Below, piece after piece: positions 8,401 to 64,000 of a stretch of 64,000 nt of DNA; the stretch's first letter is position 1; each line of letters starts with the position of its first letter. The stretch is from Chiloscyllium plagiosum (Eukaryota). The notes below the pieces were generated by a model, which was given only the letters and a program-made list of their open reading frames with translations, was not told the origin of the DNA and searched no databases. The translations under genes and the position numbers were made by a program. Location: NCBI RefSeq assembly GCF_004010195.1, contig NC_057752.1, forward strand, positions 2,978,222 through 3,042,221. Reading direction: 5' to 3'.

Positions 8401-9687
8401 TTCCTCTCCTGCAGACAAACAAAGAGAACAAATGAGTGCCATGCCAGGCGGTGCCAAGAACATGCATAGCCATGCCCTGCCCTCTCCAGGACGCAATCAG
8501 CAGCCGCAACTGGTAAAGCATTGGCAGCAAGAGGTGATTGCCAGCCATTCTGTGCAGCTATTCAGAGCAGCGCAATCAGCCTGTGTGCCATCCCGCTGCA
8601 CTGGCACAGTTAGACCGAGAGATGGCCTCCGCTTCCATCCATGTGAGCGAAAGCATGACTTAGCTTTCATTCATCAGAGCTCCTGAGTACTTAACCCTGC
8701 TTGCAAGTGTCCCTACTCAAAAGGGTGGTCTGTCGTATCCCCTGGCTTCACCCCCCCGTCTGAGTTTATACGAATTCCTCACCTCTGATTTCATTACCTT
8801 CAGACTCGACTATTCCTACACACTTCTAGCTGGCCTCTCCAAACTGGAGGTTACCTCAAACTCTGCTGCCTGTGTCTTAACTCACTGCAAGTTTCATTCC
8901 CCCTTCTCCCTTGTGCTCGTTAATCTACATTGTTTAAATTTTCATCCTCCTTTTCAAATCGCTCAATGGCCTCCCAGGTTGCAGCACTCCGCTAATGCTG
9001 ATCCCTTGATTAGGCTGTACCTGCACTGACTTGTCCCCAAGAAAATTCCCTCCTTAAAGCTCTCCACCTCGCCTTCCCTCCTTTCAGATGCTGCACCCCT
9101 TTAAGAAGCTCCTTAAAATCTACATCTTTGACCAAGCGTTTGGTCACCTGATCTAATATCTCCTTACGTGGTTCAGTGAAGCACCTCGGGATGGTTTATT
9201 GTGGTCAAGGATACTGTATGAATAGGTTGATGTTGTCGGAGTAAATGGGTGTCGACTGCAGTCCAGTTAAAGGAGAATCTTTTCAATGCTCTCCCCCAAC
9301 CTCCCCTCTGTTGTGGAGTTTTTTTTTGCTGTGCTTGGGGATTCTGCTGCGACAGGGGCAATGCTGCTTCAGGTTGGCACACTGATAAGCTCAGGATTAC
9401 CCTTGTGGCCCCAAGAAACATCGTCACATCCTCTGCACCCACCAGCCGATTTCACAATCTCGGTTAAAGGCTTGCTGAGGATTCAGGGCACTGAAGTACA
9501 ATAGGTGATGCCCATTATAAGGCCACACTTGTTCAAGAGCAGACCTTTCCGTCATTACAGGCCCGCCAAGCACGTTCTGAGCAACAAGAAACAATTAAGA
9601 AAAGCGCTTTACCCTTTTCTGTTATGGTTTACAAACATCCGTACTTTCCAAATGGGCCAATAAAATGCCCCTCGGCAAAATGCCCCT

Positions 9688-9784
9688 AGATTCCTGATGA
9701 AGGGCTCCTGCCCGAAATGTTGTTTCTCCTGTTCCTCAGATGCTGCCTGACCTGCTGTGCATTTACAGCACCACTCTAATCTTG
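9688..9784 (+). mobile_element. Penelope-like fragment (family 2) with decayed hammerhead
   Basis: Reads ATTC-CTGATGA-A-GGGC-TCCT-GCCC-GAAA-TGTTG (ACGTCG decayed at its CpGs). Flanked by ATAAAATGCCCCT (9660-9672) and ATAAAATGCTCCT (9785-9797). Confidence 0.7.
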
Positions 9785-10061
9785 ATAAAATGCTCCTGTT
9801 AATGGAGGCTTATTCTGAGTCTAACCCACACAATAGCTGGGGTTTAGAGAATTATAACTTGTACATTACAGAAGAGGCTCTTTGGCCATCAAGTCTGTAC
9901 TGGGGTTGTGGGCAGTATGTTCTGTTAGCTAATACTGATTTTCTTCATTTCCAATTAGCACACAGTTGCATATGGGAGAATAGAGAATGAACATGATTTT
10001 TACAGATGGTTGGAATCTGCATTGGCTATTGATGGGTGCCATACCAATTGCTAATCAATTA

Positions 10062-10345
10062 CTAGGGGTCAAAGTGAGAGGGGGAAATGTCTAAGGGAGA
10101 TATGCGTGGAAAGTTCTTTATGCAGAGGGTAGTGGGTACCTGGAATACGTTGCCAGCGGAGGTGGTAGAGGTGGGCACGATAGCGTCATTTAAGATGTAT
10201 CTGGACAAATACATGAATGGGTAGGGAGCAGAGGGATACAGGCCCTTAGAAAATAGGCGATAGGTTTAGATAGAGTAAATGGATCAGCGCAGGCTTGGAG
10301 GGCCGAAGGGCCTGTTCCTGTGCTGTAATTTTCTTTGTTCTTTGA
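10062..10345 (+). mobile_element. CR1 3' end (another subfamily)
   Basis: actaggggtc...ggaaagttctttatgcagagggtagtggg...gggccgaagggcctgttcctgtgctgt with tail tttgttctttg. Confidence 0.7.
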
Positions 10346-10633
10346 ACACGGACTAGCATTACACTGTGTACAGGATCCATTGCGACAAGAGGCCAGGTTA
10401 AAGTCCCACTTGCTCCAGTGGCTTGTTGTCGCACATCTGAGCAGGTCAGAACATGACAGTATGTTTGTCAACACAAGTTAGTGAGTTTTAAAAATGTCAC
10501 ACCTTTTCAAATCCCTCACTTCCTCCCCCTCTTCCTGTAACCTCCCTCCAGCCCTACAATTCTCTGAGGTCACTGCTCTCATTCACTTCTGGTCCCTTCC
10601 TCATTCCTGGCTTCCATCACCTCACTACTGGTA

Positions 10634-10870
10634 CAAAAACAGAAACAGCGGGCAAAACTCGGCAGGTCTGACAGCACCTGTGGGGAGAAAGCAGGGTTAA
10701 TGCTTTGGGTCCAGTGTCCCTTCTCGGAACTGTTCTGAAGAAGGGTCATTGGATCTGAAACATTAGCTCGGTTTCTCTCTCTCTCTCTCCACAAATACCG
10801 CCAGACCCTGCTGAGTTTCACCAGCTCTTTCTGCTTTTTGCTTCAGATTTCCAGCATCCCCACAATTCTT
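10634..10870. mobile_element. Palindromic Penelope-like insertion (family 3), degenerate hammerhead
   Basis: Imperfect inverted arms around about 10730; CTGAAGA-A-GGGTC-attg-GATCT-GAAAC at 10735-10761. Confidence 0.6.
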
Positions 10871-11746
10871 TGCTTTTTTTTTGGTGTTTACCTCACTGCT
10901 GGTGGCTGTCTGAGCACTAAACACTGGAATGCCCTCTCTTCCATGAAGCAGCCCCTGAAGACTGACTCTGCCCATCTTAATATCCCCCTCACATGGTGTG
11001 GTGGCACATTCTGTGAGGCACCTTGAGACTTTTCACTAGGTGAACTGTACGATATGGACCTGGTGTAAAACGGGAGCAGGAGCAGACTGACAGGAAATAT
11101 CGGTGAGCTGGATTCAGTTCTGGAATTGGTTGACCCAACTTTGCATCGCCACTCTTCCCACTGAGAAAGCTGCATTGGAATTTTCACCCTTCAATTTAAA
11201 TGCTGCTGTCTTGTCCCCCCCCCCCCCCCCCCACTCCACCTCAACTGTTGCTGTGATTCATGGTCCTTCTGGAGCCAATCAACTTTGACAGTTGTGCCGC
11301 GTTGTTCCTTTCTGAAAACTCCCACCACGTTTAATTAGACAATAAATTCAAATTAGTTTTGTTTGCAAAGGATCTAAAAGCAAAAACTGACATGGTGTGT
11401 AGATCAGTCATTCATATCACTGGAGTCCATGCCAGGACAATCAATCATGATTAAACTTGGCATGAACAGTACTCATTCGTGCCTTTATTTGTATCAGCAT
11501 CACCGAGCAAACTACCAGTGCTAAGCATTGATCGGCTTTCTGTTCTTAGACAAATTAACTTCATGAACACTCAAAGAAGCACTGCCTTTGTTTACTTCCC
11601 ACTCCACCCTTCCCCTCCCACATCTATTTTTTCCCCCCCCAAAACGTTCAACATGATCACAAAACTTCCCAGTTGCCAAGAGTCTTTAGCATCGTGGCTT
11701 TGTAAAGAGGGCAGAGGAAACCCCGAAGCAGGAATCGGATGAAGAA

Positions 11747-13080: not shown

Positions 13081-13271
13081 AGATGTAGGATCAAACAGGC
13101 AGTAGCAACACAATTCATGTTGAAATTCCACTGCATATCAAGGAGAACATTACTGCATCACATTTGATGTCAGGCATGCTACACTGCTTGCCTAGTGACA
13201 AAGACACTGCCTCTTTAATCATGGTTATACTGTGACAAACAGAAAAAAACAGTTATAGCAGAGGTACTCAC

Positions 13272-13425
13272 CCGATGTAATCTTCTGATTTGTTGTACTT
13301 TTTGGCCAGGTATTTGGCTGAAGCCTTGCTGGGAATTTTTACCATGGACAGCTCCTTACCATATCGAGTCATGTTGCAGGGCGTCTCACATGTGCAATAT
13401 GAACTGTCCTTCTCCACCAAGAACT
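13272..13425 (-). CDS. asic1: ASIC exon ([52 protein letters not shown])
   Basis: Manual reading: gaacAG|AG TTC TTG GTG GAG AAG...GAT TAC ATC GG|GTgagt; 154 bp. It contains the conserved [24 protein letters not shown] did not find the next exon (ENILVLDIFFE...) in 1-13271. Confidence 0.95.
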
Positions 13426-18185: not shown

Positions 18186-18878
18186 GGGTCCAGATAGGCT
18201 GGCAACAGGTTGGCAGTAGGCTACTTACCACCAAGAGACACTCTGGTGTCTACGGGGACTTTGTTGATGATTAATCAGCTGCACCCACACAGTTTGACAG
18301 ACCAGGGCACAAATAATTAGGACAGTGGAGGTTTTGACATTATGGGGTTAGTTGAATCGGAGACTGATGAACCTCAGCCCATAGTCCCACAGAGGCCTCA
18401 CTTACATCATGGCTGCACCCATCACACTTTTCAAGTTGCTCACTAGCTGGCTAAGAGACAATGACCAAGTTCAAAGGTTTCAGCCCCCTGTAGAAGACAG
18501 ACAACAAGAACTGCCTATGCTGTGCATGTTGAACAGTACAGCTCTCCATAAATCCTGTGAGCAGATTACCATTACTTGCCTGGGCAGCACGAGACTTCCC
18601 TTCTGGGATGTCAGGCATAGCTCAGCATTCATCAAAACTTTCTCTCTTATTTCCCCTTTTCTGTCACAATTTCTCTCAAAGCATGCCTCGGAGACCTTCC
18701 CTTACATGCCATAAGCTTACCCTACCTACATAAATCATCACTTTTCAGCAATGTATCAAAGGACCAGAGCTCCCTTCACTCCTTCTCAGTCTGATATCAC
18801 AAGCCTAGGTTGTAGATTCTAGGTTGAAGCCAGAACTCAGGGACTGATACAAACAAGAGTCAACAATTGGGGCAGACA

Positions 18879-19005
18879 GGGAGAAAGTGAGGTCTGCAGA
18901 CGCTGGAGATCAAAGCTGAAACTTTATTGCTGGAACAGCACAGCAGGTCAGGCAGCATCTAGGGAACAGAAGATTCGACGTTTCGGGCACAGGCCCTTCT
19001 TCAGG
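18879..19005 (-). mobile_element. Short Penelope-like insertion (family 2) with hammerhead motif and 14-bp TSD
   Basis: AATTGGGGCAGACA is repeated directly at 18865-18878 and 19006-19019. The body is homologous to the copies at 9688-9784 and 28395-28582. Confidence 0.8.
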
Positions 19006-19008
19006 AAT
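18973..19008 (-). ncRNA. Minimal type I hammerhead ribozyme (predicted), sense to the ASIC pre-mRNA
   Basis: The minus strand reads AUUC-CUGAAGA-A-GGGC-CUGU-GCCC-GAAAC-GUC-GAAU. This gives helix I AUUC/GAAU, helix II GGGC/GCCC, palindromic helix III ACGU and a GUC cleavage triplet. Confidence 0.7.
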
Positions 19009-19849
19009 TGGGGCAGACACCCTTGAGTTTCCAATGAGTACTTTGGAAATCCCCAAGTGAGCCATAGCTCTGCAAAGGCACTATAGTGAATGCAACCCAC
19101 TAGTTTCACAGGCAAGTCTACCAACAGTCAAAATAATTCCGTCAGAAATATGTAGGATACTCTAAAACAGCTCCTTACAAATGACATCCAATCCACCATT
19201 GACGAAGATGTCAAATAGAATGGATATCACTGACACACTGCTCCTGAGGTTGGACGTCATTTCAGTGAGTTTATCATTTATCCTTAAGCCAATCTTGGAG
19301 ATGGAGATCAAATCCAAGCCACTTACTCCCAGTTTCCACCTTCTTCCTTACAAGCCCAGGAGGACAAAGATGTTCTGAAGAATGAGAAATACAATGCTTC
19401 TCCTGATCTGTTATGAAGCTACCATCTGCCATACACATTCCTCCTGAGAGCAGGTCATTGAGACATTCAATATACATACGTCAATAACCCAAAGGACCAC
19501 CTTAAAAGCTGGGACTTGGAACAACGAACTACCCATGCCTTAAATAGATTCCGAATTCCTGACAGTGTCATGGCACTAATCTCGAAGACGATCACCATTC
19601 TGTCAGTACCTTTCCCATCAGTGCAGTGCAGTGCAGTGTCCACCTCGTCATTCAATTGTCTATCTGTGCAGCACTATAATCTCCATGAGGACGAACTCCA
19701 GGTCTCTCCAGACTCTGAGGATGCCCTTACGGATGTATTGAAAGGGGGATTGAGAAAGGAAAAGAGAATTACAAAACTCAACCCACATCACAAATACAAA
19801 GTTGCAACCAAAGCAAGTCAGAAGTCACGTTAATGGGCTAGCTTTCAGC

Positions 19850-21480
19850 ATGTTTTGCCTGTGTACTTGCAGTTGCAATGTGCAGTTGAAGTGGACATTG
19901 CATTAAACCTTTGTACTTATTGCTACAATGCCATGTCTAATTATCACTGGAGAGTCTGCAAAGGCTGGCAAACTGTGTCCTGGATATTGCAGCTTGTTGC
20001 TGCTGTGCATTGCAGACAGCTTCTGCTGCTTTGTCACCTACTCCATTGCCGTATTGTACACTGCATTGCAATTCACAGCGACTGTTACACTGCTGCTGCA
20101 ATCTCATCCCTTGCTGCTGTTGCATTCCATCATACTGTGTGGTATCCTGCTGTTGCATTGTGCATTTTCATAGCTGCATTGCACCTTGCAATGGTCCTTA
20201 TAATACTTACTGCTGCCTTAAAATTTGATTGCATTCTACTTTTCCGTTGTATTGTACTGCAGTTCCTTAGCGCAGCATCCAATTGTGAATGGAATATTAT
20301 GTTTTGTGAAGATATTGCATTCTGTTGCTGCAGCCATATACTTCAATTACTTCTACATTTGTGCTGCATATTGCTGCAAACGCATTGAACATTGTTGTGG
20401 TGGCAATGCAGTTTCTGCTGCATTGGACCCAGTTATAGCTGATGTGTTCAACTTCACTGTTGTTGAGCATCAGCCTGTTGGTGTTACATTACTGCTGCAT
20501 ACTACCTTGCCGCTCTATTGTGGCTATTTGCTATTCCATTGCACATTGCTTCAGCTGTTTGGTAATATTTTAACTCATTGCTGCTGTGTTGCATCCTGCT
20601 GCTTTTGCCTCCCTGCTATATTTACTCAACGATACTATACTGTGCTGGTATCGCTGCCTGTGGCTGTTGCATTATGCTCAATTCTACTGCCTTGCAGCTT
20701 GCTGCCTTTATTCAATATTTCGCTCTTGAAATGTCCTTTATTGCTGCTGCTTAGCACTTTCTGCTTCTGCATTGCACCTTATTGCTGTTATTTTAATATC
20801 CTTGCATTGCTGTCTGCTTTCTTTGCTACATCTTGCTCTTACTGCATTGCATGTTTTCACTGTTGCATTGTTCTTTGCTGCTGCTGTTTTGTACCTTATT
20901 ACTGCTGTTGCATTGTAACCTGCTGCTCTTGCATTATACAGCAATGCTTTAGAATTGCACTTTGTTGATGCACTGTATTTTTTGCTGCAACAATGTGCCT
21001 TGTTATCACAGCTCTATAGTTGTTACTGTATTTCACTGTTAGTACAACTGCACTGTAACCTGTTCGGCTGTATTATTTCTCAATACTGTAGTGTATTGTA
21101 TTGATGCATTGCACCTTGCTGCTGCAGTGTTGCACTTGTTGAGATTGCCTGCTTAGACAGCATTCTAGCTTGCTCTCATGTTGTGACTTTGACAGTTCCA
21201 TTTGCTCGAGTTGCATTTGCTTCTACTGAATGCACCTTACTGCTTTTTTAAAAATCAAGCAATGTTGCTTTAATGTACTTTGCAGCTGCTTTCTTGTATA
21301 ATCACTGCTGCATCACACCCAAATAGCTGCATTTTACCTTGTCGCATTTCAATGCAATTCTTTGCTTGTGCATTGGCCCTTCCTGCTGCATTGCATGCTG
21401 CTATTGTATTGCACATTATTACTCATGCATTATGCCTTGCTGTTGCATTTACTCTCCCAACTGCAGTATTTTGATTGAAA
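19850..21480. repeat. Degenerate TGC/TTG-rich low-complexity tract
   Basis: Recurrent tgctgc/tgttgcattg words over 1.6 kb, producing Cys/Leu-rich (+) and Gln-rich (-) spurious ORFs. Confidence 0.75.
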
Positions 21481-24400
21481 TAAATGCAACAAGCAATGTC
21501 ACTCACTTTTCAAGAGTCACGTCTAACTTCCGTTTCAAAGCGCTCCTGTGTGGCAGCAGTCTTGTTATCAGAAAACCGCAAAGCAGCGCATGTGCCAAGT
21601 ACCTGCAGTGGTTGCTTTTGGCCAGTGAGTAACTTGGTGGCCCCATCAAGAAAAAACGACGACAACTGGTCCACCTGGGCATCGAGAAGAGGTGGCGCGT
21701 GCAAGAATGGTGTACCCTTGCTGTACTGACATATGCGCGTTGGTATCCAATGACAAGGACTTCAAGTGGCAGGACTGCAAGCAACCCCGGGATTAGGTAA
21801 TTACTTACCGGCAGTAAGAGGGCACTAATAATTGCCCAAGACATGGCGTGAGCTGGTATTGGTGCCCACTTGTGGTGCAGTATTTTGAGCCAACAGTGTC
21901 TCCCCCCTGCAGTTGGCACCACCAACACCATTGATTGAGTAATGCACTCTGCAGCTAATTCAATGTGAGGCTGACTAGGAAGGCACTGCTCTTTTGAAAG
22001 GAAACATACATGCTCCACTGTGTACAAGGATCTACTGTGGAGCTCTACTTGTGACTACTCAACCAGCAGAGGGTAGGTTGTCAGAACAATATTTCGTTGG
22101 GAACAATGTAGCTGTCCAATAGAAGCACTGCAAGCTGTCTGTGCGGAGCTTGCCACTTACTTTAATGTGCTGTACGTATGTAACAATTGCAAATCTGATT
22201 CCTTTGTATTTTGATTTTCTCTCAGTGGCTAGCACTGGGCTGATGGCCACATGCAGACTGCGGGCAGACTCCCCTTGCGCCAGCTCACTGCACTCTGTCC
22301 GTGCAAGAGGTGCAACTAGTGGTCACTCCTGTCACCTTTCCTACCATCCGCAGCGCATGTCCTGCCATTGTGCGGCCAATGGCGTCTGGCTGTGCTCCAT
22401 TCAGGTCCATGTCCCGAGGCGAACGTTGGCATGAACTGCACCAATGCACTTTTCATTCACTCCCCATCCCCCCAGCTTGTTTGCCAGCGGGAAGCGGGTT
22501 GGCAAGACCTGCAGGCACGGAACACAGAGGGTGGTGAAACGGCAATAACCAACATCGAGCGCCAAAAAAACATGGACGACCACCACAACAATTACCTGTG
22601 CTTGATGGCTACCACTGGCTGCTGCAGTGCTGTGCACTCTGAGCTTCTGATGGAGCACAGTAGGATATCTGCAAGGTATCTTCACCAGTCTCCTCAAAGC
22701 TAGTGCCATTGGTTCATGCTTGGGCAGTCAATGCCCCTGCCACAGGAACACTGCTCCCAGCAGCAAGCTTGGCAGCTCCACAGAGAAACATGCTTGACAT
22801 GTGCCAGGTAACATGCCCAAGTTGGCACACATCAATTCTGCAAATTAACAGGCCAAGTGACGCTGGCTGCTCTCCTTCACTTGTATTTACCTCCCCTTTA
22901 CCCACCTTCAACCCCATTTGTCACCTGTAAAGGGCACTGCTTAGCGCATGGGTACCCCGACATCTGCCCAAACGGACGAGGAGGCACTGTTTGCTTGGGC
23001 ACCGCACTCCAGCACAGTTGCTCCGATGGCTACCTTGTGAATGCTTCACATCCAGCCTGACCTTACAACGAGGAACAAGAAGAACAAGTCAGTACAGCTT
23101 TCGAGACAACATCTGACAACGCGGAACACTGAGCAAGTAGGCTTTAACAGCCTGCTTACAGAATATGGCCGCGAGTAGCAGGTGATTGGAGAGAGTCAGA
23201 GAGGAACAACAACAGAGAGAGTGTCCACTGTAGCCTTTGTGTCATCCACTTTTTTTTTAAAAAGAACTGAAAGTTTTGAGAGTTCCTTAACAGAAAACAT
23301 GAAGCCAAATTCACAAACAGGCCTCTGGGCTCCTGTTCTATCATGGTGTGCACATTTGCATTGCGAGAATGGCACTGCGTGATTTATCCCTTTGGAGAAC
23401 TGGCGCAGACATGGACGGCCGAATGACCTCTTTCTGTCTAGTAACAGAGCTATCACTCTGTGACTCCGACAGAGAGTTGGTGGCTTGGTGAATGCCAAGA
23501 TATCAGGAGATGGGAGTTGCAAATGTCATGGCACGTGGGGGCAGTGGATGTACTGCCTAGGCGTCTTGTCATAAGTCAGTCACCCAGGGAAGCATGGTAA
23601 GGCTTTATCCTCCTCTATTTGAAAACCTGCTACCACTCAGCTGACCATGTAAGGCCTTGTGTTGCTCCAAAGGCCAGTGGAAAATGGACTCTCAGCTGGA
23701 TGTAGGTCAGTCCATTTTATTTGCAATAGACTGGAAAGAGGCAAGACCACCCTGGTATATGCCAATCCTGAGTGACAGGACCATCACCATGAAAATGGAG
23801 ATGTAATCTTGGGCTTCCTCAATTGTCTCCAGGAGTTAAAAGATTAACATCTTTGATTACAAGCAATGTCTGGGAGAAATATCATCTGGAGGTTAAAAGA
23901 AGATTTTTTTTGGTGTTCTTTTGAGAGGATGGAAATGTTGTGTGACCACTGATGGTGGATGGAGGCATAACATTTGGCAACACAAGGGTCATCTGATGAA
24001 ACATCCAGGGTTATCTCCAACCACAAGTTGCCAACCCAAAGGAGGTCAGAGATTTCAAAACTTATTTCTTAGCCATGGGTAACCAGATGATTTTGTACCA
24101 TTTGGCAATGGAGCTCAAAGCTGCACGTAGTCAAACTTTTGAATTTGACCAAAGTGTTTCCCATTTTAGCTGGCCCCAAGCATAACTTGGCAAGACATCC
24201 ACTTTTGACACATCCTTCCAAGTCCATATCAACTTACACAAAGTGCTGGCTGAGTGAACTCATCCTGTTCTGACCTGAGAATAAGGATTTGCCCCTTCGT
24301 CACCACCCCACTGATCAGGCACACTGTTCAAGATCTGAAGCATTAATTATTGGCTGAAAGTATGAACCAGATTCACCAGGCTTTGAGATAAAAAAAAACA

Positions 24401-24851: not shown

Positions 24852-24968
<117 letters not shown>

Positions 24969-26543
24969 TTAGCAGTCAGGAAACTTGTACGCATGCACAA
25001 ATGTCTCCTAATGAGCCTATTTACATCCATGAAATTCTAATGATTGCAATTATGTTTCATGCTGAAAATGCCCTTGAAGGAACCTTTTGAGGAAAAATTG
25101 CTTTTGAGTTGCAAGACTAAACGAAATAAGCACACACAGCCTCCAATACATAAGTAGAGTTGTGTTAGGAGCAAGAGAAGCTGATTAGAATTCCTCAGGC
25201 CTGCTCCCGCTAACGTTCTCCCTAATGTTCCCACGATGCAACATTTACTGTGTCCATCCCCCACAAAACCTGTGCAGAAAAGACATGCGATCGTTCCGGG
25301 CCTCTGCTCATGCACACATCTGACCCTCTCTAACGGTTACGACTGGACTCTCAAAGAGGGAAAAATAGTGCAAATTCAAAGGTAAAAGAGACGCAATGTT
25401 TTTTTTTAAATGAAGAGGTTAGAAATGACCTTGACCAAAATTATTTAGGAAACACTTAATGTGCTTCTCCTCTGCTTCTAATTTCAATGTAAGAACAGTC
25501 AGATGCTTCAACCTATCCCGTCACTCAATTCAATCAGGCAGAGGATGACTACAATTTCTAGACAAACAGAATTCAAAAGCAGGCTTTGCTCACCTACAGT
25601 TGGAGCACAGTTCTAGTTTCTACATTTTGAAAAGGATATGGAGAACGTATGATAAATGGTTTCCAGAGCTAGAACAAAATGGTACATCAAACAGGAAAGA
25701 CCAGGTTAGAACTCTTTTCTCTACAAAAGAGAAGCCTTAGGAATGGCCGACTGAGGTGTTAAAATCATGGAAGAATTGCTGGACAGTCCAAAACTGATGT
25801 AAGATAATCACAAATAAATCCAGCACAGAAATCAAGAAACTTTGTGTTGAGAAGGGTTAGAATGTGGAAGGTCAGAGTGGTTGAGAATAGCATAGATGTT
25901 ATGCCTTCTGATTATCTTCTGGTCCTCCTCTGTCAAAAATGTAAAGCTTAAGAGGTCTCTGTCTTTAACCCACTTGCCATGGTGTTGGCTAGAAGACAGC
26001 CCCAATCAGTGTCTTGTTAGACGTTGTCCGATTCTCCAGCACAGCTGTAAATGTTGTCCACTGGAACACTTCCACATCCAAATGATTCCAGGCTAACTAG
26101 TTCCTGACTTTTTGCAGACAATACACCAATATATACCAATAAGTACATTCAGACGAAAGTTGATAAACAAGTTAGCGAGAAAGAAACCGGTTTGAGATGA
26201 AACTAGGGAGGATGCTCAGGTAAGTATCCGCTTGGATCGGTTGGGCTGATTGGCATATTTCTATGCTATATATTTTATGCAATTTATTTATAAAAGACGG
26301 GTCTCAATTAAAGTAGTAGATAGAGGAATATTCTAGAAATAAAATGCTTTGCTGATGCTCACCAACAAGCCTAAGACCAGAATATAAAAAAACTCTCAAG
26401 GAGTAATGAGGATACAAAATGAGTGAGCCAAACTGAACAAAATATGTGAGATGCAAACACAACGACAAAGCACGAGAGAGACAAAGTAAAAGACCCTGGA
26501 CAGGATGGAACCACAACTTGGATGTGTGTACATTTTACAGATG

Positions 26544-26748
26544 TGATTCAGAGATGCCGGTGTTGGACTGGGGTGTACAAAGTTAAAAATCACACAACAC
26601 CAGGTTATAGTCCAACAGGTTTAATTGGAAGCGCACTAGCTTTCGGAGCGACGCTCCTTCACCAGGTGATTGTGACAATCACCTGATGAAGGAGCGTCGC
26701 TCCGAAAGCTAGTGTGCTTCCAATTAAACCTGTTGGACTATAACCTGG
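26544..26748. mobile_element. Palindromic Penelope-like insertion (family 1), first copy
   Basis: Long inverted arms ccaggttatagtccaacaggtttaattggaag...cttccaattaaacctgttggactataacctgg, centred near 26674, with a hammerhead-like motif on each strand. Confidence 0.8.
26680..26714 (+). ncRNA. Minimal hammerhead ribozyme (predicted)
   Basis: Reads CAC-CUGAUGA-A-GGAGC-GUC-GCUCC-GAAA-GC-UA-GUG: helix I CAC/GUG, 5-bp helix II, palindromic helix III AGCU, predicted cleavage after 26711. Confidence 0.65.
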
Positions 26749-27032
26749 TCTATGCTATATATTTTATGCAATTTATTTATAACAGACGGGTCTCAATTAA
26801 AGTAGTAGATAGAGGAATATTCTAGAAATAAAATGCTTTGCTGATGCTCACCAACAAGCCTAAGACCAGAATATAAAAAAACTCTCAAGGAGTAATGAGG
26901 ATACAAAATGAGTGAGCCAAACTGAACAAAATATGTGAGATGCAAACACAACGACAAAGCACGAGAGAGACAAAGTAAAAGACCCTGGACAGGATGGAAC
27001 CACAACTTGGGTGTGTGTACATTTTACAGATG

Positions 27033-27227
27033 TGATTCGGAGATGCCGGTGTTGGACTGGAGTGTACAAAGTTAAAAATCACACAACACCAGGTTATAGT
27101 CCAACAGGTTTAATTGGAAGCACACTAGATTTCGGAGCGACGCTCACCTGATGAAGGAGCGTCGCTCCGAAAGCTAGTGCTTCCAATTAAACCTGTTGGA
27201 CTATAACCTGGTGTTGTGTGATTTTTA
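27033..27227. mobile_element. Palindromic Penelope-like insertion (family 1), second copy, 14-bp TSD
   Basis: ACATTTTACAGATG at 27019-27032 and 27228-27241; inverted arms as in the first copy. Confidence 0.8.
27145..27179 (+). ncRNA. Minimal hammerhead ribozyme (predicted), duplicate of 26680-26714
   Basis: Same CAC-CUGAUGA-A-GGAGC-GUC-GCUCC-GAAAGCUA-GUG motif. Confidence 0.65.
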
Positions 27228-28394
27228 ACATTTTACAGATGGGAACAGAGGGCAGACTTACACAAGGAAGCAGACAAACAGTGAGGCTAAGAGATGGGCA
27301 AAGTGTCATGACAGGAGGAGAACGTATCTGCCAACCACACTGGAACATGTGGCCCAAAGTTGTTTCTCGTTGGTGCGAATGGGGACGAGGATCAAAATTC
27401 TGTGCAGGTATTGTCCTTGCTATATCTCTGTCTATCTTGCACCAACAGGGTATGTCTGGGTAAGAAAGGAGGGAGAGATTCCCAAAAATGTAATATTGAA
27501 ATAGATTTAAGGAGCAAATGCGCAAATTTCAACATTCACACCGGGGATGGAGAGGTGTTCAATGCTCCCTGCATTTACAGGACAGGTGCCATTTTTGATC
27601 TGATTTTTGGAGGTAGCAGAAGTACGACACTGTTCCATCTTTTTATTGAACCATATTTTGGCTTTAGGTTTCCAGCTGGCACACTGTACCATGTGTATGC
27701 CTATGGGACCATTATGTGGAAGTAGTAAAGAAAGGATAGCATGCAGGCGAAGGTGTCCACTCCCTGTTGCCCTGGAAACAGGATCATTAGGCTGGGTTGC
27801 AATTATTTGGGTTTGTTTAATAATTCTTTCCTGCTTGTGATGAAGAGGGAAGGCTGTTACACAGTGCCCTCTGCTGCAGCCTGACATCTAGCCGGGGAGC
27901 CTGGCAGGGTTCTCCCCAAAGAGTAGGGCATCAGAAATGGCACCAATATGAAATTAAGGGCTCCTCCACACACCGCTCGATGCCACCAGAAACTATCAGC
28001 AAGGAACAGCAGAGGGCAAAAGTTGCTTCTCTGGCACTCAGAAGACACCTTTTATTTTAAGGCCCCTTCATGAAGCCCTTGGTACACCCTCTTCAGCCCT
28101 GCCACTTCTGCGATAGTCAGGGCCAAACGCCAAGCACAGATAAAATGAGGTTGATACAGTTACCAGAACTGTCACTTAAAAACATCGCTGATGTCTTGAG
28201 ACAATGCTTGATTGACCAGGGAGTGCTCTACATCCAGAGGAGAAGGCTGGCAGGATCCAGTTCCTGAAGGGCCACATATGGCCTGCGAGCTTACGATGAC
28301 AGGCTCTCATTGACAAAACCTCGTCTTAGATTTACTAGTCCCCCGTCTTGTCAGTATGCTTTCAGCTATTCATGCTGACAACAAAACAGCTTTA

Positions 28395-42197: not shown

Positions 42198-42404
42198 CTG
42201 AGAACGAGAACATAAAACCGGAACATTACCGAGAGGGCATTTCAATGAACCATGTTTTTAAATATCATATTACTATGGGGCCTGGTGTCAATGGAAACAC
42301 TTTGGATTTCTTGAACCTAAACACAATTTACCAAGAGTTGATGGACAGCCAGTGGGGAAAAAAAAAACCAACTAGTACATGATTTGTATCAGATATTAAA
42401 GTCA

Positions 42405-46320: not shown

Positions 46321-46448
46321 CCGCTGTTCTTGACAGGAAACAAATGTTTGAAATCCAGGTGGCACTCCGAAACCCAGTTGGTCGATAAATGGTGGCTCAT
46401 TCTGACCATGAATCTGAACCTTTATACCAGCTTCAAAGGAGGTCTCAT
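46321..46448 (-). CDS. asic1: ASIC exon ([43 protein letters not shown])
   Basis: Not in the ORF track; read manually from the reverse complement: catacAG|AT GAG ACC TCC TTT GAA...GAA CAG CGG|GTatga. It is 128 bp, completes the Asp codon split from the previous exon and ends in phase 0. Confidence 0.95.
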
Positions 46449-48817: not shown

Positions 48818-49508
48818 GAGTCCGAGAGTCCTACAGCATGGAAATAGACCCTTTGGTCCAATGTGTCCATGCCAACCAGATATCCTAAATTAATCTAGTC
48901 CCATTTGCCCGCATTTGGTCCATATCCCTTTAAACCCTTCCTATACATGTATCTATCCAAATGTCTTTTAAATGTTGTAATTGTACCCACTTCTACCACT
49001 TACTCTGGCAGCTCATTCCATAAACACCACCCTCTGCATGAAAATGTTGCCCCTCAGGTGCCTTTTAAATCTTTCCCCTCTCACCTTAATCCTAGTTTTG
49101 GACTCCCCTATCCTTGGTAAAATATCTTGACGATTCACCTTATCTGTGCCCTCATGATTCTGTAAACCTCTATAAGCTCATCCATCTGCCTCTCATGCTC
49201 CAGGAAAAAAGTCCGACCCTAACCAGCCTCTCCTTATAACTCAAGCCCTCCAGTCCCAGCACCATCCTTGCAAATCTTTTTTGTACCCTTTCAAATTTAA
49301 CATGCTTCCTTCAACAGGGTGACTAGAATTGTATGCAGTATTCCAAAAGTGATCTCACAAATGGCTTGCACAGCTGCAACATGATGCCCCAACTCCTGTA
49401 CTCAATGCTCTGACCAATGGAGGCAAGTGTGCCAAACCCCACCTTCGCCACCCTGTCTATCTATGAAACTGCTTTCAAGGAACTGCGTACCTGCACCCCT
49501 AGGTCTCT
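48818..49508 (-). mobile_element. CR1 LINE 3' fragment, older; resumes at about 50212-50227 and 50463-50550
   Basis: Reverse-complement homology to 49509-50211. The resumed part encodes WQMELNLDKCEVLYFGKANQGRTYTVN. Confidence 0.85.
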
Positions 49509-50211
49509 CCTTGGAGTGCAGGTTCATAGCTCCTTGAAAGTGGAGTCGCAGGTAGATAGGATAGTGAAGGCAGCGTTTGGTATGCTTTCTTTTATTGGTC
49601 AGAGTATTGAGTACAGGAGTTGGGGGGTCATGTTGTGGCTGTACAGGACATTGGTTAGGCCACTGTTGGAATATTGCGTGCAATTCTGGTCTCCTTCCTA
49701 TCCCAAAGATGTTGTGAAACTTGAAAGGGTTCAGAAAAGATTTACAAGGATGTTGCCAGGGATGGAGGGTTTCAGCTATATGGAGAGGCTGAACAGGCTG
49801 GGGCTTTTTTCTCTGGAGCGTCGGAAGCTGAGGGGTGACCTTATAGAGGTTTACAAAATCATGAGGGGCATGGATGGGATAAATAGACAAAGTCTTTTCC
49901 TTGGGGTCAGGGAGTCCACAACTATAGGGCATAGGTTTAGGGTGAGAGGGGAAAGATATAAAAGAGACCTAAGGGGCAACCTTTTCACACAGAGAGTGGT
50001 ACATGTATAGAATGAGCTGCCAGAGGCAGTGGTGGAGGCTGGTACAATTGCAACATTTAAGAGGCATCTGGATGGGTATATGAATAGGAAGGGTTTGGAG
50101 GGATATGGGCCGGGTGCTGGCAGGTGGGACTAGATGTGGTTGGGATATCTGATCGGCATGGACGGGTTGGACTGAAGGGTCTGTTTCCATGCTGTACAGC
50201 TCTATGACTCT
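49509..50211 (+). mobile_element. CR1 LINE 3' fragment (RT C-terminus and 3' tail)
   Basis: The ORF reads LYRTLVRPLLEYCVQFWSP...LERVQKRFTRMLPG...LGLFSLERRKLRGDLIEVYKIM, typical of the CR1 ORF2 C-terminus; tail ctctatgactcta. Confidence 0.9.
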
Positions 50212-50227
50212 ATTCCCTGCGCCCTAC

Positions 50228-50462: not shown

Positions 50463-51624
50463 CCTGACATTAACTGTGTAAGTCCTGCCCTGGTTTGCCT
50501 TACCAAAATACAACACCTCACATTTATCTAAATTTAACTCCATCTGCCACTTTTTTGTACACAATAGGTCATCAGATTTTTCTTCCTGACAATTGGCAAT
50601 GGTCATCATTAGTCTCTTGATTCCAGATTTTTTAATTGAATTCAAATTCCGCCATCTGAAATGGTGAGGTTCAAACCAATGTCTCTGGAACATTACCCAG
50701 GTCCCTGGATTAATCATCTGGCAATAATGCCAGCAGGGCATCATCTCCCCATGACCATAGTCTCTCCACACCATTGATAACGCAATTCAGTAATTCTTCA
50801 CTGGAATCCTGTTACAGGAGAATGGCCTCTATGTCCACTTGCTAGCCTCTGGTTCTGTGTTGTTGGTACGTAGGGGATAATTTCAAGTTGCCTGACCTGG
50901 CAGGAAACCGATTGCATCGGGGCATCCCATTTTTACCCCGTATTAAATTTAGTTTCTGCTGAAGCTCAAGTGATAAACCTGTCTAGATCCTCAACAGCTG
51001 ATGCATGGGAAAATCCGTTTTTATTTAACCAGGCTTCTGAGCAGAGAGAATCGGGCAAATTCACTTTGGGATGCCTGTTGGCAGCACAAGACCAATTTGC
51101 ATTGGCAGCCAGTAAGCAATGGCACAGGTCTGGAGGAACATAAGAGCAACTCACACCTGGCACCCGTAGCTGGGGCACTGCCAGACCTGGCTCACAGGCT
51201 AATTTAGGCGTTGGATGATCACTTCAAGGCACCTTATACCATATCAAAGAAGTGCTAATAAGATCCACATGCGCCAACCCGAGTTTAGGAAGTGCTCACT
51301 CAGCAAGAGATTTGCAAACCAATACCAGTTTTGCCAAAATTCTGAAAACGTAAGATGACCGGAATCGTAGCAAATAGAGGTCATTTCTGTTAACGTCAAT
51401 CAAAAGACAAGAGTCAAGTAGAGATTCATACACAATTACATGAAAGATCCTGAATCTCAAAACGGTGTGCATCTTGCAGAAAACACATGATTGATCCCTT
51501 AATATTCTTGATCCCACATAATGAATGCGTTTTGTCAGGTTTCACAGGCTGTTCCCTTCAGACGTGTCAGGGGATCACTGAATATTAAAAAACTGAACTC
51601 CAAATTTGTACAAGCCAGCCAACG

Positions 51625-52260
51625 TTTGCCTTTATTGGTCAGTGCGTTGAGTATAGGAGTTGAGATGTCATGTTGCCAAAGGTCAGGACATTGGTGAGGC
51701 CACTTTTGGAATACTGCGTTCAATTCTCATCTCCCTCCTATAGGAAAAATGTTGTTCAACTTGAAAGGGTTCAGAAAAGATTAACAAAGATGTTGCCAGG
51801 ACTGGAGAGTTTGAGCTGCAGTTTCAGCTGCAGCTGAACTCAAGCTGCATTCAGTTTGAGAGGCTGAATAGGCTGGGGCTGTTTTCCCTGGAGCTTTGGA
51901 GGCTGAGGGATGACCTTATAGAGGTTTATAAAATCATGAGGGGGACGGATAGCGTAAATAGACAAGGTCTTTTCCCTGGGGGTGGGGGAATCCAGAACTA
52001 GGGGGCATAGGTTTAAGGTCAGAGGGGGCATAAGGGGCAACTTTTTCACACAGAGGGTGGTGTGTGTATGGAATGACCTGCCAGAGGAAGTGGTGGAGGC
52101 TGGTACAATTACAACATTCAAAAGGCATCTGGATGGGTAAAAAATAGGGAAGGGTTTACAGGTATATGGACCAAATGCTGGCATGTGGGACTAGATTTAT
52201 TTAGGATATCTGCTCGGCATGCACAAGTTGGACTGAAAGGTCTATTTCCATCCTGTAGAT
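51625..52260 (+). mobile_element. CR1 LINE 3' fragment
   Basis: Homologous to 49590-50190, with frameshifts. Confidence 0.85.
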
Positions 52261-52399
52261 CCTGTTGAAAAGAAATAGATGAATATAGCTGGCAGGTGCT
52301 GCCAGGAAAAGGGGTCAGATGTGCAAAATGATAGGGTGGCATCATACTCTTTTTGATAGCTGGCAGTGTGGAAGAAATGGCTGTGAGATGGTACCCCAA

Positions 52400-56148: not shown

Positions 56149-56302
56149 CTGTTTCACCCCAGACAGGAAGGTAATCATCCTGCTGAATATCCAGCATCAG
56201 TTCCAGACCATTCCCAGTTCCCCCTTTCATCGTTGTCAGGATTGGTTGGTCTTTAGTCTGCCCGGAGTTAAAAGTGTAGCACTTGCCATACCTCGTAAAC
56301 AC
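56149..56302 (-). CDS. asic1: ASIC1-group acid-sensing ion channel, internal coding exon ([14 protein letters not shown]...[14 protein letters not shown])
   Basis: The translation matches the DEG/ENaC ASIC motifs [11 protein letters not shown] and [15 protein letters not shown]. Acceptor ...ccctgcAG|GTG and donor ACA G|GTacc give 154 bp, phase 0 to phase 1. The paralogue (asic1 or asic1c-like) is not resolved. Confidence 0.95.
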
Positions 56303-60524: not shown

Positions 60525-61748
60525 TCTGGATTGAGACTTAAACCTACAATTTCGGAACCAGAGAAAGAGTTCTACCAACTGAGCTACAGCTAATATCTTG
60601 GCTCCATAAACCATATATGAGGTACGTAGTTTAATATATTGGCCAGTTCTGTAGCAAAGACATTGTCCTTTCTTGCTATTTTCATCACTGCATATTTTCT
60701 CCAGAGATGGGCCACACAATGGAGCAGAGTAACGTTCAGACTCCTCCTGCAGCTTTTGATAGCTTACCCATCCTTCTCTCTGCTGGGGAGTGCAAAAGGA
60801 GAAAATACGCATTAAAACTAAAGGCAAAACTTTGAAATAAAGACCGGCACATGGATATAAATGAAACGGATGCTGCTCTTTACTCCTTAACCAACTTGAT
60901 TTAACAACCTCCAAAAAAAACCCAACATAATTGGCCAGGTTTTCTCATTTCATTTAACACTGCATAATTGAAAGACTAATTAGAGAGCTGAAATAAATGG
61001 CACTTTAATAAATGTCACATAATGTTCATGGAATCTAAAATATGTAATCTTTTAATAGAATGATACCTCCTAATAACAGGACTGGATAATGTTGTCAAAA
61101 ATAATTACAGCTCATCGAAATATTTTGGAAGGAATCACTAAGAGCCTGGATTCAGCGGTCGCGTAGACTCCTCTGCCTCTGGGACTTGGGCTTGAATCCA
61201 ATCCCATTCCAACAAGACGGGAGGCTGCATGAGCTGCTGATGTCTTAAATGAAATGATTCTTGGCAGCATGGAACTTAAATGCTGTTAAAAGGAGGCATG
61301 AAATGAAAGTTTGTTGTCTTGCAGTCATCAGGACAAAAATGCTAGAAAACCAACTTTGGAAAAAGAACAGAAATAATGAAACGTGAGAAGTTGGGTGCTG
61401 ACTGTTTGACAATACGTGGTGTAGATATTCAGCAGGGAACTGTGAGCTGTTGAGTTAACTGATTAAATTCAAACCAAGCAAGCTGCCTCTGATTGGTCAG
61501 GGCATTGGTATGTGGATGCAGCAAGGGTTAGATGTGATTCCTTGTTGCCAAAAGGAATCTGTGCACACATTGCACCTTTTCTCTCTAAGGAAAGGGCTAT
61601 CGAGTGAGCCAACTGCTGCTGCATTCCTGTGATGAAGGGGCTTATCTATTGAGAAAGGCTGAACAGGTTCGGCCTATAGATGGTTAAGGGGTGATCTGAT
61701 CCAAGTCTTCAAGATATTAACAGGAAAAGGCAAGGTAGATAAAGATAA

Positions 61749-62168
61749 CAGGCTGGGGCTGTTTTCCCTGGAGCGTCGGAGGCTGAGGGGTGACCTGATA
61801 GAGGTTTACAAAATTATGAGGGGCATGGATAGGATAAATAGACAAAGTCTTTTCCCTGAGGTCAGGGAGTCCAGAACTAGAGGGCATGGGTTCAGGGTGA
61901 GAGGGGAAAGATATAATATGAGACCTAAGAGGCAACATTTTCACACAGAGGGTGGTATGTGTATGGAATGAGCTGCCAGAGGAAGTGGTGGAGGCTGGTA
62001 CAATTGCAACATTTAAGAGGCATTTGGATGGGTATATGAATATGAAGGGTTTGGAGGGATATGGGCCAGGTTCTGGCAGGTGGGACTAAATTGGGTTGGG
62101 ATATCTGGTCGGCATGGACGGGTTGGATCAAAGGGTCTGTTTCCATGATGCACATCTCTATGACTCTA
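61749..62168 (+). mobile_element. CR1 3' fragment nested in an older CR1 (about 61630-62480)
   Basis: High similarity to 49795-50211. The host reads ...gtagataaagataa|insert|ataaactatttccac... Confidence 0.8.
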
Positions 62169-63171
62169 TAAACTATTTCCACAGGTTGAGGATTCCAGAA
62201 CTAGGGGCCATAGTCTGAGAATGAGGGCCAGACCGTTCAGGAGAGATGTTCGGAAGCATTTCTACACACAAAAGGTGGGAGGGGTTTGGAACTCTCTTCC
62301 ATAAATGGCAGTGGATGCTGGATCAGTGTTCATGTTACATCTGAGATCAGCAACTTTTTGTTAAGCAAAAGGTATTAAGGGATATGGGCCAAAGACTCAT
62401 TAAGTCAGACCACAAATCAGCCATGATCTTACTGAATGGCAAAACAGACTCAATGGGTTAAATGGTCAACTCTGTTCCGATATCCACTGTATTTTTAGAA
62501 GAATGAGATGTGATTTGATTGAAATATATAAAGTCTGAAAGGGATGAGGAGGGCTCTATACCAGGAGGGTAGTTCCATTTGTTGGACCGCAAGCAGGAGA
62601 GTGGAGCTGAGACCACAACCAGACCGGCCTGACCTTATCAAATGGCTGAACAGCCTGGAGGGGGTCAAGTGGCCTTAACCTGCACCTATATTCCTGACCA
62701 ATCAGAGCCGACTTGGCTGGTTTGAATTCAATCAGTGAACTTAGACAGTTAACAGGTCCTGCTGAATCTCCATGCCAACAGTAGTCAACCCTCTTCAGCA
62801 TAAACTGTTGGTCGCTTTCTGAAGTTGATCTTCTTGTGTTTCAGTCCTGCTGAGGGCAAGACAAAAGCTTCAAAGTCATGTTTCTTTTGAGCAGTGTTCA
62901 AAATGAATCTCAACCTAGGTTACAGTGGACACTAGTTAGAGTCTGTATTTTGCTGCACTAAGTTGTCAATGTTACTCAGAGAGGCCCTGAGGATGACTAG
63001 TGGGGAACATCAAAATCACTCACATCAGAACATTTGTCCATTATTCCACAGGACCTCTCACTACCAGAAACTCCCTTGTCAAGTTCAGCAGGTGTCAACT
63101 AAAATCTCCCCTACCCCACAATACATCTGAGCTCCATTTTCAAAGTCTGACACCATTCTAATTTAATCATG

Positions 63172-63367
63172 ATTTGGAGGTGCCAGTGTTGGACTGGAGT
63201 GTACAAAGTTAAAATTCACACAACACCAGGTTATAATCCAACAGGTTTATTTGGAAGCACTAGCTTTCAAAGCGCTTCTCCTTCAACTGATGAAGGAGCA
63301 GCGCTCTGAACGCGAGTGTTTCTAAATAAACCTGTTGGATTATAACTTGGTGTGTGCGATTTTTAAA
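63172..63367. mobile_element. Palindromic Penelope-like insertion (family 1), 13-bp TSD
   Basis: TAATTTAATCATG at 63159-63171 and 63368-63380. CTGATGA at 63287 is retained, but GAAA is mutated to GAAC. Confidence 0.8.
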
Positions 63368-64000
63368 TAATTTAATCATGTTTTAGTTCTGTTTTGACCA
63401 GCCCAATTTATTTATGATTTTTTTCTATCAGAATAGCTTACCAATTAGCACGACACAACACCAAGTTTGTGATGAAGAATCTTTGCTATCTGTCACTTGT
63501 CACATCGGGAGATTCTTCTGTGCTTTTTTTTTCAAATGCAAATTCAGTCACAGGATGAGCGATTAAAGACGCCAAATTAAAATTGCAAGTTGTTCATTTT
63601 CTGCAGAGCTCCTGATCCAAGCAGAACGTCTCTTGGTAACTTGCAAAATCTGCATTTATCATAATCCAACTGAAGCCTCCATGAGCCTCTGATCACTGAG
63701 TGCTGTGCCACTTGCAAAACTCATACACCCAGACTATTTGCTGAGCAATGTATCCATTTTAAAGGCTGCAGTACTAATTTGAAATTGAAACGTAAAGAGC
63801 TTTGAGCCAGTGCAGGTTTGAATCCAATCCAAACTGACAGGATGAAGATTTCTGCACAGCCTCTTCCAAAATCCTGCAGTAAGTCTCACTAAGCTATACA
63901 CGCCTGATCCTGGATACAATATCCAGCTCTTGTTGAGCAGTCTGAACAGTAGTTGGACAGACACTTAGCCTTATGTCTTAAGCCTGCAGTTCCTTCCTTC

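Follow-up and report, generated by a model that had tools for sequence, protein, structure and literature searches.

Penelope-like elements (PLEs) that bear an endonuclease (EN+) include the Neptune and Nematis types, which are defined by a CX2-5CxxC linker and by cysteines within the GIY-YIG core (PMC8557442). A hammerhead, inverted pLTRs, a one-sided tail of 30-40 bp and a TSD have all already been published for PLEs. Where the inverted pLTRs and one-sided tails come from, and what the hammerhead does, are still treated as open in the accessible parts of PMC8557442 and PMC11167929. Regular insert edges in a genome offer a testable clue to the copying of this poorly understood class.

In vitro, the Poseidon element PAc cuts both DNA strands and, on uncut RNA, starts reverse transcription at two internal points, one at either side of the tail (PMC11167929). 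In L1 insertions, an extra G is the mark of a capped 5' end (PMC11702581). The mapped start of D. virilis Penelope is followed 46 bp later by an intron, and the end of this intron adjoins the hammerhead (PMC2377424, PMC4209133).

The stretch analysed here, called the window, comprises 64,000 nt of the Chiloscyllium plagiosum genome (GCF_004010195.1, NC_057752.1:2,978,222-3,042,221, forward strand). Its inserts, together with copies elsewhere in the genome, show three features beyond those of the initial annotation: a pile-up of 5' ends at the front edge of the ribozyme, an extra G before a fixed A, and the pairing of one short-ended with one tail-ended arm. The preferred reading, with a probability of about two in three, is that the inserts are pLTR-end fragments of two EN-bearing PLE lineages, the front-edge class being likely run-off cDNAs of the first 90-135 nt of a capped RNA. 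A literature search, made mostly without subscription papers, turned up nothing in which a cap G, run-off copying or a twin start is described for PLEs.

Parts of four coding exons of an ASIC (ASC-family) gene lie on the minus strand of the window, at 13271-13414, 42045-42194, 46321-46434 and 56156-56299, and the next exon lies immediately to its left. Eight of the nine inserts are therefore intronic. The ninth, at 63170, is upstream of the first exon found, with no further exon in the next 9.9 kb, and is thus only likely to be intronic. The initial annotation had described about nine short inserts throughout the ASIC introns, active at high density. All nine are in place and the copy number is very high genome-wide, but these introns are nothing special: the window holds 16 arms in 64 kb and six arbitrary regions hold 189 arms in 584 kb. 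On this comparison an enrichment in ASIC introns was rejected, and nothing points to the inserts having a function in the ASIC gene.

Seven of the nine inserts are head-to-head fold-backs (10633, 26544, 27033, 28395, 42403, 43363 and 63170) and two are single arms (9690 and 18879), in agreement with the earlier description of most as fold-back inverted repeats. Several had also been credited with TSDs of 13-15 bp; a script detected TSDs in five, at 14-17 bp.

Both single arms belong to family 2. The short-ended arm at 9690-9785 (plus strand) starts at A(-4) before CUGANGA and is preceded by an extra G at 9689; its core is damaged 3' of GAAA. A TSD was judged by eye from a 13-bp repeat with one mismatch (9660-9672 and 9785-9797) and 17 bp of filler. 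The tail-ended arm at 18879-19008 (minus strand) also starts at A(-4), lies within a 14-bp TSD (18865-18878 and 19006-19019), and contains an intact minimal hammerhead with C3 at 19004. This is the only intact hammerhead in the sense of the ASIC pre-mRNA. In the family 2 fold-back at 28395-28582, with a 15-bp TSD (28380-28394 and 28583-28597), CUGANGA is absent from both arms.

Family 1 supplies four fold-backs. At 26544-26749, A(-8) is the first base of either arm and a single G:C pair (26674) separates the two, the core at 26683 (plus) is intact, and the palindrome has 75-nt arms of 97% identity; a 489-bp tandem duplication has cut the right arm and removed the right flank. The insert at the duplicated site, 27033-27230, has an intact core at 27148 (plus) and a TSD of 14 bp exact, or 17 bp with one mismatch (27019-27032 and 27228-27241). 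Its centre is 24 bp shorter. Because the two inserts represent one site and yet differ in their centres, seams can evidently change after insertion or in assembly. The copy at 43363-43551, from another subfamily, has a core mutated to CUAAUGA and a 12-bp inverted repeat at its flanks in place of a direct TSD. At 63170-63367 GAAA is damaged, and the TSD is 17 bp with one mismatch (63159-63175 and 63368-63384).

The family 3 fold-back at 10633-10879 consists of a short-ended minus arm and a tail-ended plus arm; its core at 10735 (plus) is decayed and its TSD is 14 bp with one mismatch (10619-10632 and 10890-10903). The other family 3 fold-back, at 42403-42605, is old (72-76% to the references), with a mutated core, and the script found no TSD around it.

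The coding frames next to them identify families 1 and 2 as pLTR ends, belonging to two EN+ PLEs of Neptune/Nematis type with RT, zinc-finger linker and GIY-YIG. The Penelope-like origin proposed in the initial annotation is thereby borne out, both main families being traced to RT and GIY-YIG elements in the C. plagiosum genome. The family 2 unit lies 250-600 bp behind the GIY-YIG frame, and in three loci (L104, L106 and L107) it is 94-97% identical to the 18879 copy. Family 2 parents (L099/L184, L102, L106 and L107) encode an RT thumb/YIDD and GIY-YIG. The family 1 unit lies about 0.5-0.9 kb behind the frame. One family 1 parent, L177, combines DKG, YIDD, a CxxC linker and GIY-YIG in a single element ending in the family 1 unit. 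A Pfam search missed both family-1 fragments; tblastn gave E 9e-56 to an RT and GIY-YIG protein. For family 2 there are 72 longer homologues, of which most are annotated as RT and 68 have DKG. All genomic parent elements seen are broken or gapped. Translations of both parents contain the CX2-5CxxC linker before GIY-YIG and cysteines within its core; the Neptune/Nematis assignment was made on these, the homologues carrying no clade names.

An inverted 5' copy, a tail of 30-40 bp on one end and a TSD are all present. In three family 2 loci (L093, L095 and L210) the tail is followed by the ORF start, and the same unit also occurs at the 3' end. No continuation is common to 93 family 1 tail ends, so a two-sided pLTR is established for family 2 and not for family 1. 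In L093 the pLTR-ORF start is also repeated once over a short length, head to tail. Family 3 is an older relative of family 2, the two bodies being homologous (81 of 97 aligned bases); no long upstream sequence was found for the 30 family 3 cores examined. This homology corrects the earlier statement that the bodies differ between families.

The 3' ends of arms lie at two fixed points 30-40 nt apart, and 170 of 182 arms fall in the two classes, short-ended and tail-ended. Fold-backs pair one arm of each class in 93 of 101 classifiable cases (29/33, 38/39 and 26/29 by data set). Single arms use both points about equally (50 short, 49 tail). Either arm of a fold-back can hold 5' sequence that is absent from its partner. 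Seams between arms are diverse, many junctions show microhomology, and two loci, L403 and L405, share one odd seam. In arbitrary regions, TSDs accompany 22 of 38 fold-back pairs; a search around old single arms gave 16 calls among 99, several clearly due to chance, and was left unused.

The 5' ends concentrate within 24 nt at the ribozyme's front edge. Here, from -14 to +9 relative to C3, lie 120 of 276 arms: 64 of 152 tail-ended (neighbouring 24-nt bins 16, 9, 10 and 3) and 56 of 124 short-ended (neighbouring bins 16, 7, 6 and 2). The peak is also seen in copies of at least 92% identity (26/64 tail-ended, 30/64 short-ended). Alignment ends are uncertain by a few bases. Family 3 is excluded from the counts, because old copies that lack an upstream reference could make the peak look higher than it is. 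Calling the inserts heavily truncated, as had been done, suits the long staircase of copies but not the main peak, whose members all break off at a single fixed position.

Just before the fixed A, whether A(-8) or A(-4), G is over-represented. Among the first 100 matches listed for each family, counted by eye, this base is 34 G, 4 T, 1 A and 61 parent C in family 1, and 33 G, 15 A, 4 T and 48 parent C in family 2. One step further upstream, G makes up 3/19 and 4/14 of the non-parent bases. Since the parent C is still present before A in about half of the short copies, the start is not confined to one nucleotide. In many fold-backs the G could derive from the partner arm. With partner-arm cases dropped by eye, G accounts for 11/14 (family 1, p 2e-4) and 13/24 (family 2, p 0.012), against a background of 0.29. 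Family 2 single arms alone give 9/21 (p 0.076, not significant), and L438 is the only single arm whose G clearly lies beyond the TSD.

Raw single-cell poly(A) reads are neutral evidence on the RNA start. In run X19 (about 2% sampled), 630 and 710 reads were found, on both strands; 83-97% continue into unlike sequence, and there is no place where many molecules begin or end. Run X20 had no matching reads, no RNA data set was listed as containing the pLTR-ORF stretch, and the contig runs X1, X6 and X15 are of a type that does not reveal starts.

A strict descriptor (CUGANGA, helix II of at least 4 bp, GAAA, palindromic helix III, helix I of at least 3 bp) matched three times in the window (26683 plus, 27148 plus, 19004 minus) and never in 100 dinucleotide shuffles. 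CUGANGA, GAAA..UH, an extra base after position 9, G10.1-C11.1 and a palindromic 15.2-16.2 are present in three of the nine inserts. These features support a minimal type I hammerhead with a 4-nt palindrome instead of helix III. The helices named in the initial annotation are right for these copies; the other six inserts have mutated cores or none (28395). The check it suggested, with Rfam hammerhead models, returned no hammerhead: at E up to 5, the window gave 11 matches, only chance microRNA-hairpin matches below threshold.

Helix covariation between families was upheld by compensatory changes in 517 core matches, tabulated by script as raw counts that ignore phylogeny and represent few independent lineages. 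Helix II pairs are GGGC/GCCC (218), GGAG/CTCC (119), GAGC/GCTC (3) and AGGT/ACCT (3); helix I pairs are CAC/GTG (144), TTC/GAA (48) and GTT/AAC (8); and the helix III palindrome is ACGT in one family versus AGCT in the other. A MAFFT alignment of 13 motifs placed the families out of register and was not used for pair counting. The 4-bp helix I AUUC/GAAU, put forward as a family 2 trait, occurs in one subfamily only, whereas most family 2 cores have a U-U mismatch (TTC/GAT 153 versus TTC/GAA 48).

Exact intact cores of three types number 80,879, 18,531 and 189 genome-wide, with none in reversed controls. These roughly 99,000 cores agree with the high copy number claimed for ribozyme-bearing elements and provide a sample for testing predictions from the junctions. 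The monomer hammerhead fold is predicted at only -7 to -9 kcal/mol and the 4-bp dimer helix at only -1.7 to -2.5 kcal/mol. For the dimer, the lowest-energy structure predicted is another fold, and folding predictions place the motif of fold-backs deep inside a long hairpin.

Ordinary 5' truncation would explain the short arms by RT stalling at the folded hammerhead in the downstream pLTR, joining by microhomology, and a G excess from local sequence. A staircase in which 61 of 276 arms extend beyond -62, the microhomologies, and partner arms able to supply G fit such a process. However, the peak is at the upstream edge, past small stems of only -7 to -9 kcal/mol predicted, and not at their downstream foot; the G excess persists in the unconfounded cases and is confined to one position. 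Truncation of this kind is unlikely. Self-priming, or snap-back on one template with later trimming, could make the fold-backs, single arms then being ordinary truncations. It would suit near-perfect palindromes such as 26544 and the centre differences between 26544 and 27033, and PMC3846280 reads rotifer Penelope palindromes in this way, on an antisense template. Yet in 93 of 101 classifiable rows each arm has its own fixed stopping point, unlike that of its partner, single arms use those same points about equally, and either arm can carry 5' sequence missing from the other, which makes self-priming improbable at roughly the level of a long shot.

A non-autonomous mini-element, a SINE-like stub or hairpin or a retrozyme-like unit transcribed and copied as a whole, resembles what the initial annotation had proposed. 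Many near-identical 131-bp copies have the same ends (in a set selected by query), and the recurring 27033 seam, the odd seam of L403 and L405 and the short repeat in L093 also speak for it. But seams are diverse, and that of 27033 has just 13 exact matches, set against 18,531 intact cores, spread over 11 sites (9 in one polarity and 2 in the other). All subfamilies have the fixed start and all merge gradually into long copies of the autonomous element, and the window has no tandem array of units. A mobile hairpin unit was rejected as the main explanation on the rarity and both polarities of the 27033 seam, and the mini-element in general is very improbable. Least credible is that hammerhead self-cleavage creates the template's 5' end and so fixes the truncation point. 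In its favour, the motif persists from family to family with compensatory changes, and a few arms start at +26 to +31, near the cut site. These are only 10 of 276, however, about the level of neighbouring positions, by which the cut was rejected as the main truncation point; the main arm class retains the whole ribozyme, and PAc inserts uncut RNA in vitro (PMC11167929).

Under the preferred run-off reading, the endonuclease would cut both target strands about 14 bp apart, and each cut 3' end would serve as primer at one or other of two internal start sites, the pattern that PAc shows in vitro. From the 5'-most copy of the sites, the enzyme would get to the RNA 5' end after about 100-135 nt and would often copy the cap as G. 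Two cDNAs joined head to head would give a fold-back, and one joined to the target a single arm; use of these two sites in the downstream pLTR would yield the longer copies. On this view the mRNA would open with the hammerhead as its first 32-37 nt, the ribozyme would be copied in uncut form, and the stubs in the genome would be dead-end passengers. The start layout of D. virilis Penelope (PMC2377424, PMC4209133) differs from a start at the hammerhead's front edge and counts against this reading.

A wider synthesis is tentative, with somewhat less than an even chance of being correct. The hammerhead would form the capped mRNA's first 32-37 nt, both strands would be nicked with one cDNA per internal site, roughly four in ten arms would be strong-stop-like run-offs recording the cap as G, and decapping by the ribozyme, triggered by a protein or by dimerisation, would switch the RNA between translation and template use. 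If so, cleavage would remove the cap, and fossil reaction products that map the PLE cycle would be preserved in their tens of thousands in the C. plagiosum genome. Three predictions follow from the junction statistics: transcription begins at the first strand of helix I, each cut strand uses a single RT start site, and the ribozyme's cut takes off the cap.

The closest relatives are the EN+ PLEs of Neptune/Nematis type (Craig et al. 2021, PMC8557442), which share the single ORF, RT DKG, CX2-5CxxC linker and C-terminal GIY-YIG, as well as strong 5' truncation, an inverted 5' copy, a one-end tail of 30-40 bp and the pLTR hammerhead. The commonest insertion here is the pLTR front piece only, with a fixed 5' edge and an extra G, which the available text of that paper does not describe.

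Non-LTR retrozymes (Li et al. 2026, bioRxiv 10.64898/2026.07.22.740005) are likewise short non-coding type I hammerhead units related to pLTRs. They are head-to-tail tandem repeats, whereas the present inserts are single arms or head-to-head pairs with TSDs; no head-to-tail units each with a hammerhead occur in the window, and one short tandem was seen elsewhere (L093).

The minimal PLE hammerheads of Cervera and de la Pena (2014, PMC4209133) share type I topology, the extra base between 9 and 10.1, G10.1-C11.1, the palindromic 15.2-16.2, covariation between families, mostly single dispersed motifs, and some opposite-strand pairs 100-700 bp apart. Helix II differs in being 4-5 bp here. The accessible text does not name cartilaginous fish and gives about 4,000 motifs in coelacanth and 9,000 in Xenopus tropicalis, compared with about 99,000 exact cores here by a different search method.

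Adineta Penelope (Arkhipova et al. 2013, PMC3846280) shares head-to-head pLTRs, a junction palindrome, an optional 31-bp tail, TSDs and an Inr-like pLTR motif; unlike here, copies are few, self-priming is the explanation, and an extra G is not discussed in the parts available.

Poseidon PAc from Anolis (Frangieh et al. 2024, PMC11167929) has two internal RT starts that flank the tail and lie 3' of the hammerhead, close to where the ORF begins, and cuts and extends both DNA strands with uncut RNA, like the scheme proposed here. It belongs to the Poseidon clade, and its ATG lies within the hammerhead, versus about 175 nt downstream in family 2. An RNA start, a cap G and one-site-per-arm pairing are absent from the accessible text.

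L1 twin priming (PMC11702581) also has a second cDNA primed by the second strand, a TSD of 12-18 bp and an extra G at full-length 5' ends. Its arms are adjacent, non-overlapping parts of a long RNA, starting at the poly(A) tail, whereas both fold-back arms here copy the same 5' stretch.

All nine of the short inserts claimed by the initial annotation are present in the window. Seven are fold-backs, made of two arms joined head to head, and two are single arms. Target-site duplications (TSDs) of 14-17 bp were found by script in five of the nine. In place of a direct TSD, the insert at 43363 has 12 bp of target sequence repeated in inverted orientation on its two sides (43351-43362 and 43544-43555).

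The minimal hammerhead proposed for these inserts is intact at three places (26683+, 27148+, and 19004-), compared with 0 of 100 shuffles matching the same strict descriptor, but the other inserts have no such match. A search of the window with Rfam, suggested as a check, gave no matching hammerhead model. Only 19004- is in the sense orientation relative to the ASIC pre-mRNA. For the fold-backs, the predicted structures are long hairpins (-60 to -152 kcal/mol) that would conceal the motif. Helix covariation holds between families, among 517 core matches in 1.9 Mb, although the lineages are few and most family-2 cores carry a U-U mismatch in helix I.

Four exon pieces of the ASC family lie on the minus strand of the window, and the next such exon lies just to its left. 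In the genome (3.56 Gb), exact intact cores number 80,879 for family 2, 18,531 for family 1, and 189 for family 3, while reversed-pattern controls gave 0. The copy number in the genome is very high. The ASIC introns are ordinary, because the window holds 16 arms in 64 kb compared with 189 in 584 kb from six arbitrary 100-kb regions.

Other features of the window include a 42-bp tandem array of 16 copies that is open in more than one reading frame (36946-37633), situated between 300-bp direct repeats (36402 and 38064), and a degenerate CTGTTGCATTG-rich repeat region that yields cysteine-rich open frames (19830-21630). LINE-like RT 3' fragments are found at 49300-50210, 51600-52270, 61750-62170, and 33080-33660; among them is an inversion with 186-bp arms (49318-49694).

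A Penelope-like origin is supported for families 1 and 2, both of which can be traced to parents bearing a GIY-YIG endonuclease. A genome search for GIY-YIG gave 150 scored matches. Among the first 30 of these and 20 longer stretches, the family-2 unit is found downstream of the frame in the same orientation, at a distance of 250-600 bp and with up to 94-97% identity to the copy at 18879. A 385-aa family-2 frame has 72 longer homologues, most with RT annotation and some with GIY-YIG. Walking upstream from family 1, a staircase of truncations leads to a GIY-YIG frame, and one family-1 stretch (L177) encodes an RT that carries DKG and YIDD (tblastn E 9e-56). Both parents have a CX2-5CxxC linker, which PMC8557442 assigns to Neptune and Nematis. 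In three loci the family-2 tail continues into the ORF start (ATG at about +175, numbered from C3, the C of CUGANGA, as 0); the family-2 unit is therefore the pLTR overlap. Elements ending in the insert sequences were thus found for two families, but all parent copies seen are broken or gapped, and no ORF link was found for family 3, which is an older homologue of family 2.

Elsewhere (L069, L071, L182) there is a third PLE lineage. Its endonuclease frame is Poseidon-like and its hammerhead differs in having a longer helix II; no copy was noted among the nine window inserts. Families 1 and 2 also meet directly: in L246 a family-1 core and a family-2 arm are joined head to head, and a family-1 copy holds an inserted family-2 copy in L115. 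Beside an assembly gap (L093:1-437), a 224-bp unit of hammerhead, tail, and first codons is repeated head-to-tail, an arrangement resembling that of retrozymes.

Arms have preferred 3' end points. Of 182 arms in the six arbitrary regions, not counting 7 duplicated ones, 170 stop at one of two places, about +80-100 (short) or +118-139 (tail). Single arms use the two about equally (50 short, 49 tail). Both ends could be classified in 33 of 38 head-to-head pairs, and 29 of these were short/tail, 3 short/short, and 1 tail/tail; independent choice of ends would give a short/tail share of about half. The four like-ended pairs have no TSD, and in three the gap exceeds 120 bp. Among young copies from C1, a sequence of this genome, two sets were short/tail in 38/39 and 26/29 (5 more were unclassifiable, and four inserts were counted from both arms). 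Near the short end of one family-2 unit (L107:4260, about +90), directly behind an AATAAA, 33 RNA reads of run X19 exit into an A run. Family-2 copies may provide poly(A) sites for host transcripts.

The 5' ends also cluster. Removal of search-selected, stretch-edge, and duplicate arms reduced 888 arms to 390, and omission of unclassified ends and of family 3, which has no upstream reference, left 276. Starts fall within -14..+9 in 64 of 152 tail-ended arms (neighbouring 24-nt bins: 16, 9, 10, 3; beyond -62: 28) and in 56 of 124 short-ended arms (16, 7, 6, 2; beyond -62: 33). Since both classes peak at the same place, the peak marks a position, not a length; it is also seen in young copies. 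Only 10 of the 276 arms start in +26..+31, around the predicted hammerhead cut site (+28/+29).

At this edge an extra G is frequent. Patterns shutting out most long copies gave 5,089 matches for family 1 and 17,837 for family 2. In the first 100 of each, read by eye, the base before the fixed A was G 34, T 4, A 1, and the parent's C 61 at A(-8) of family 1, and G 33, A 15, T 4, and C 48 at A(-4) of family 2. Among about 70 fetched copies of each, G made up 20/24 and 23/36 of the non-C bases in short copies, and 3/19 and 4/14 one step further upstream. The partner arm can supply a G in fold-backs, and where a lone G:C pair separates two symmetrical arms, as at 26674, that pair may just as well be the C of the parent. 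In single arms and filler junctions only, sorted by eye, G remains at 11/14 and 13/24, against a background of 0.29; family-2 single arms taken alone give p 0.076, which falls short of significance. In the parents, the sequence around the A (TCC-A-CA and TC-A-TT) resembles an initiator. In L1 insertions, an extra G is described in PMC11702581 as a mark of capped 5' ends.

Exact matches to the seam of the 27033 insert number 13 and occupy 11 sites; the tail is on one side in 9 of these sites and on the other in 2, a pattern that fits repeated formation. The seam can also result from deletion after insertion or from assembly, since 26544 and 27033 occupy a single duplicated site yet differ by 24 bp at the insert centre. 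The site belongs to a 489-bp tandem duplication (26260-27048) whose junction cuts the 26544 insert. Its flanks agree except at 2 of about 290 bases, while the inserts are separated by four substitutions in one arm, a 2-bp indel, and the 24-bp indel. The mismatch may reflect a deletion that removed part of the centre afterwards, gene conversion, or an assembly that placed two alleles in tandem. Elsewhere, two family-1 fold-backs 474 kb apart (L403, L405) have an identical odd seam with the tail on opposite arms.

In the mechanism we propose, the RNA would start at the first helix I strand, and the PLE protein would cut both target strands about 14 bp apart. The cut ends would prime at two internal sites; from the 5'-most sites, the enzyme would run off at the cap. 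Each cDNA would then be joined either to the other cDNA or to the target. The hammerhead would be copied while uncut; if it cuts, a capped leader of 32-37 nt would come off. Its 4-bp dimer helix is predicted to be weak, in agreement with reports that motifs of this kind have low activity or are assisted by protein.

The ribozyme and the insert layout are already published. Minimal hammerheads in pLTRs, chiefly as single dispersed motifs, appear in PMC4209133, and an inverted 5' copy with a one-sided tail of 30-40 bp in PMC8557442 and PMC3846280. Two internal RT start sites that bound the tail, and cutting of both strands, are described in PMC11167929. To these the junction pattern adds a testable model for one part of the PLE cycle.
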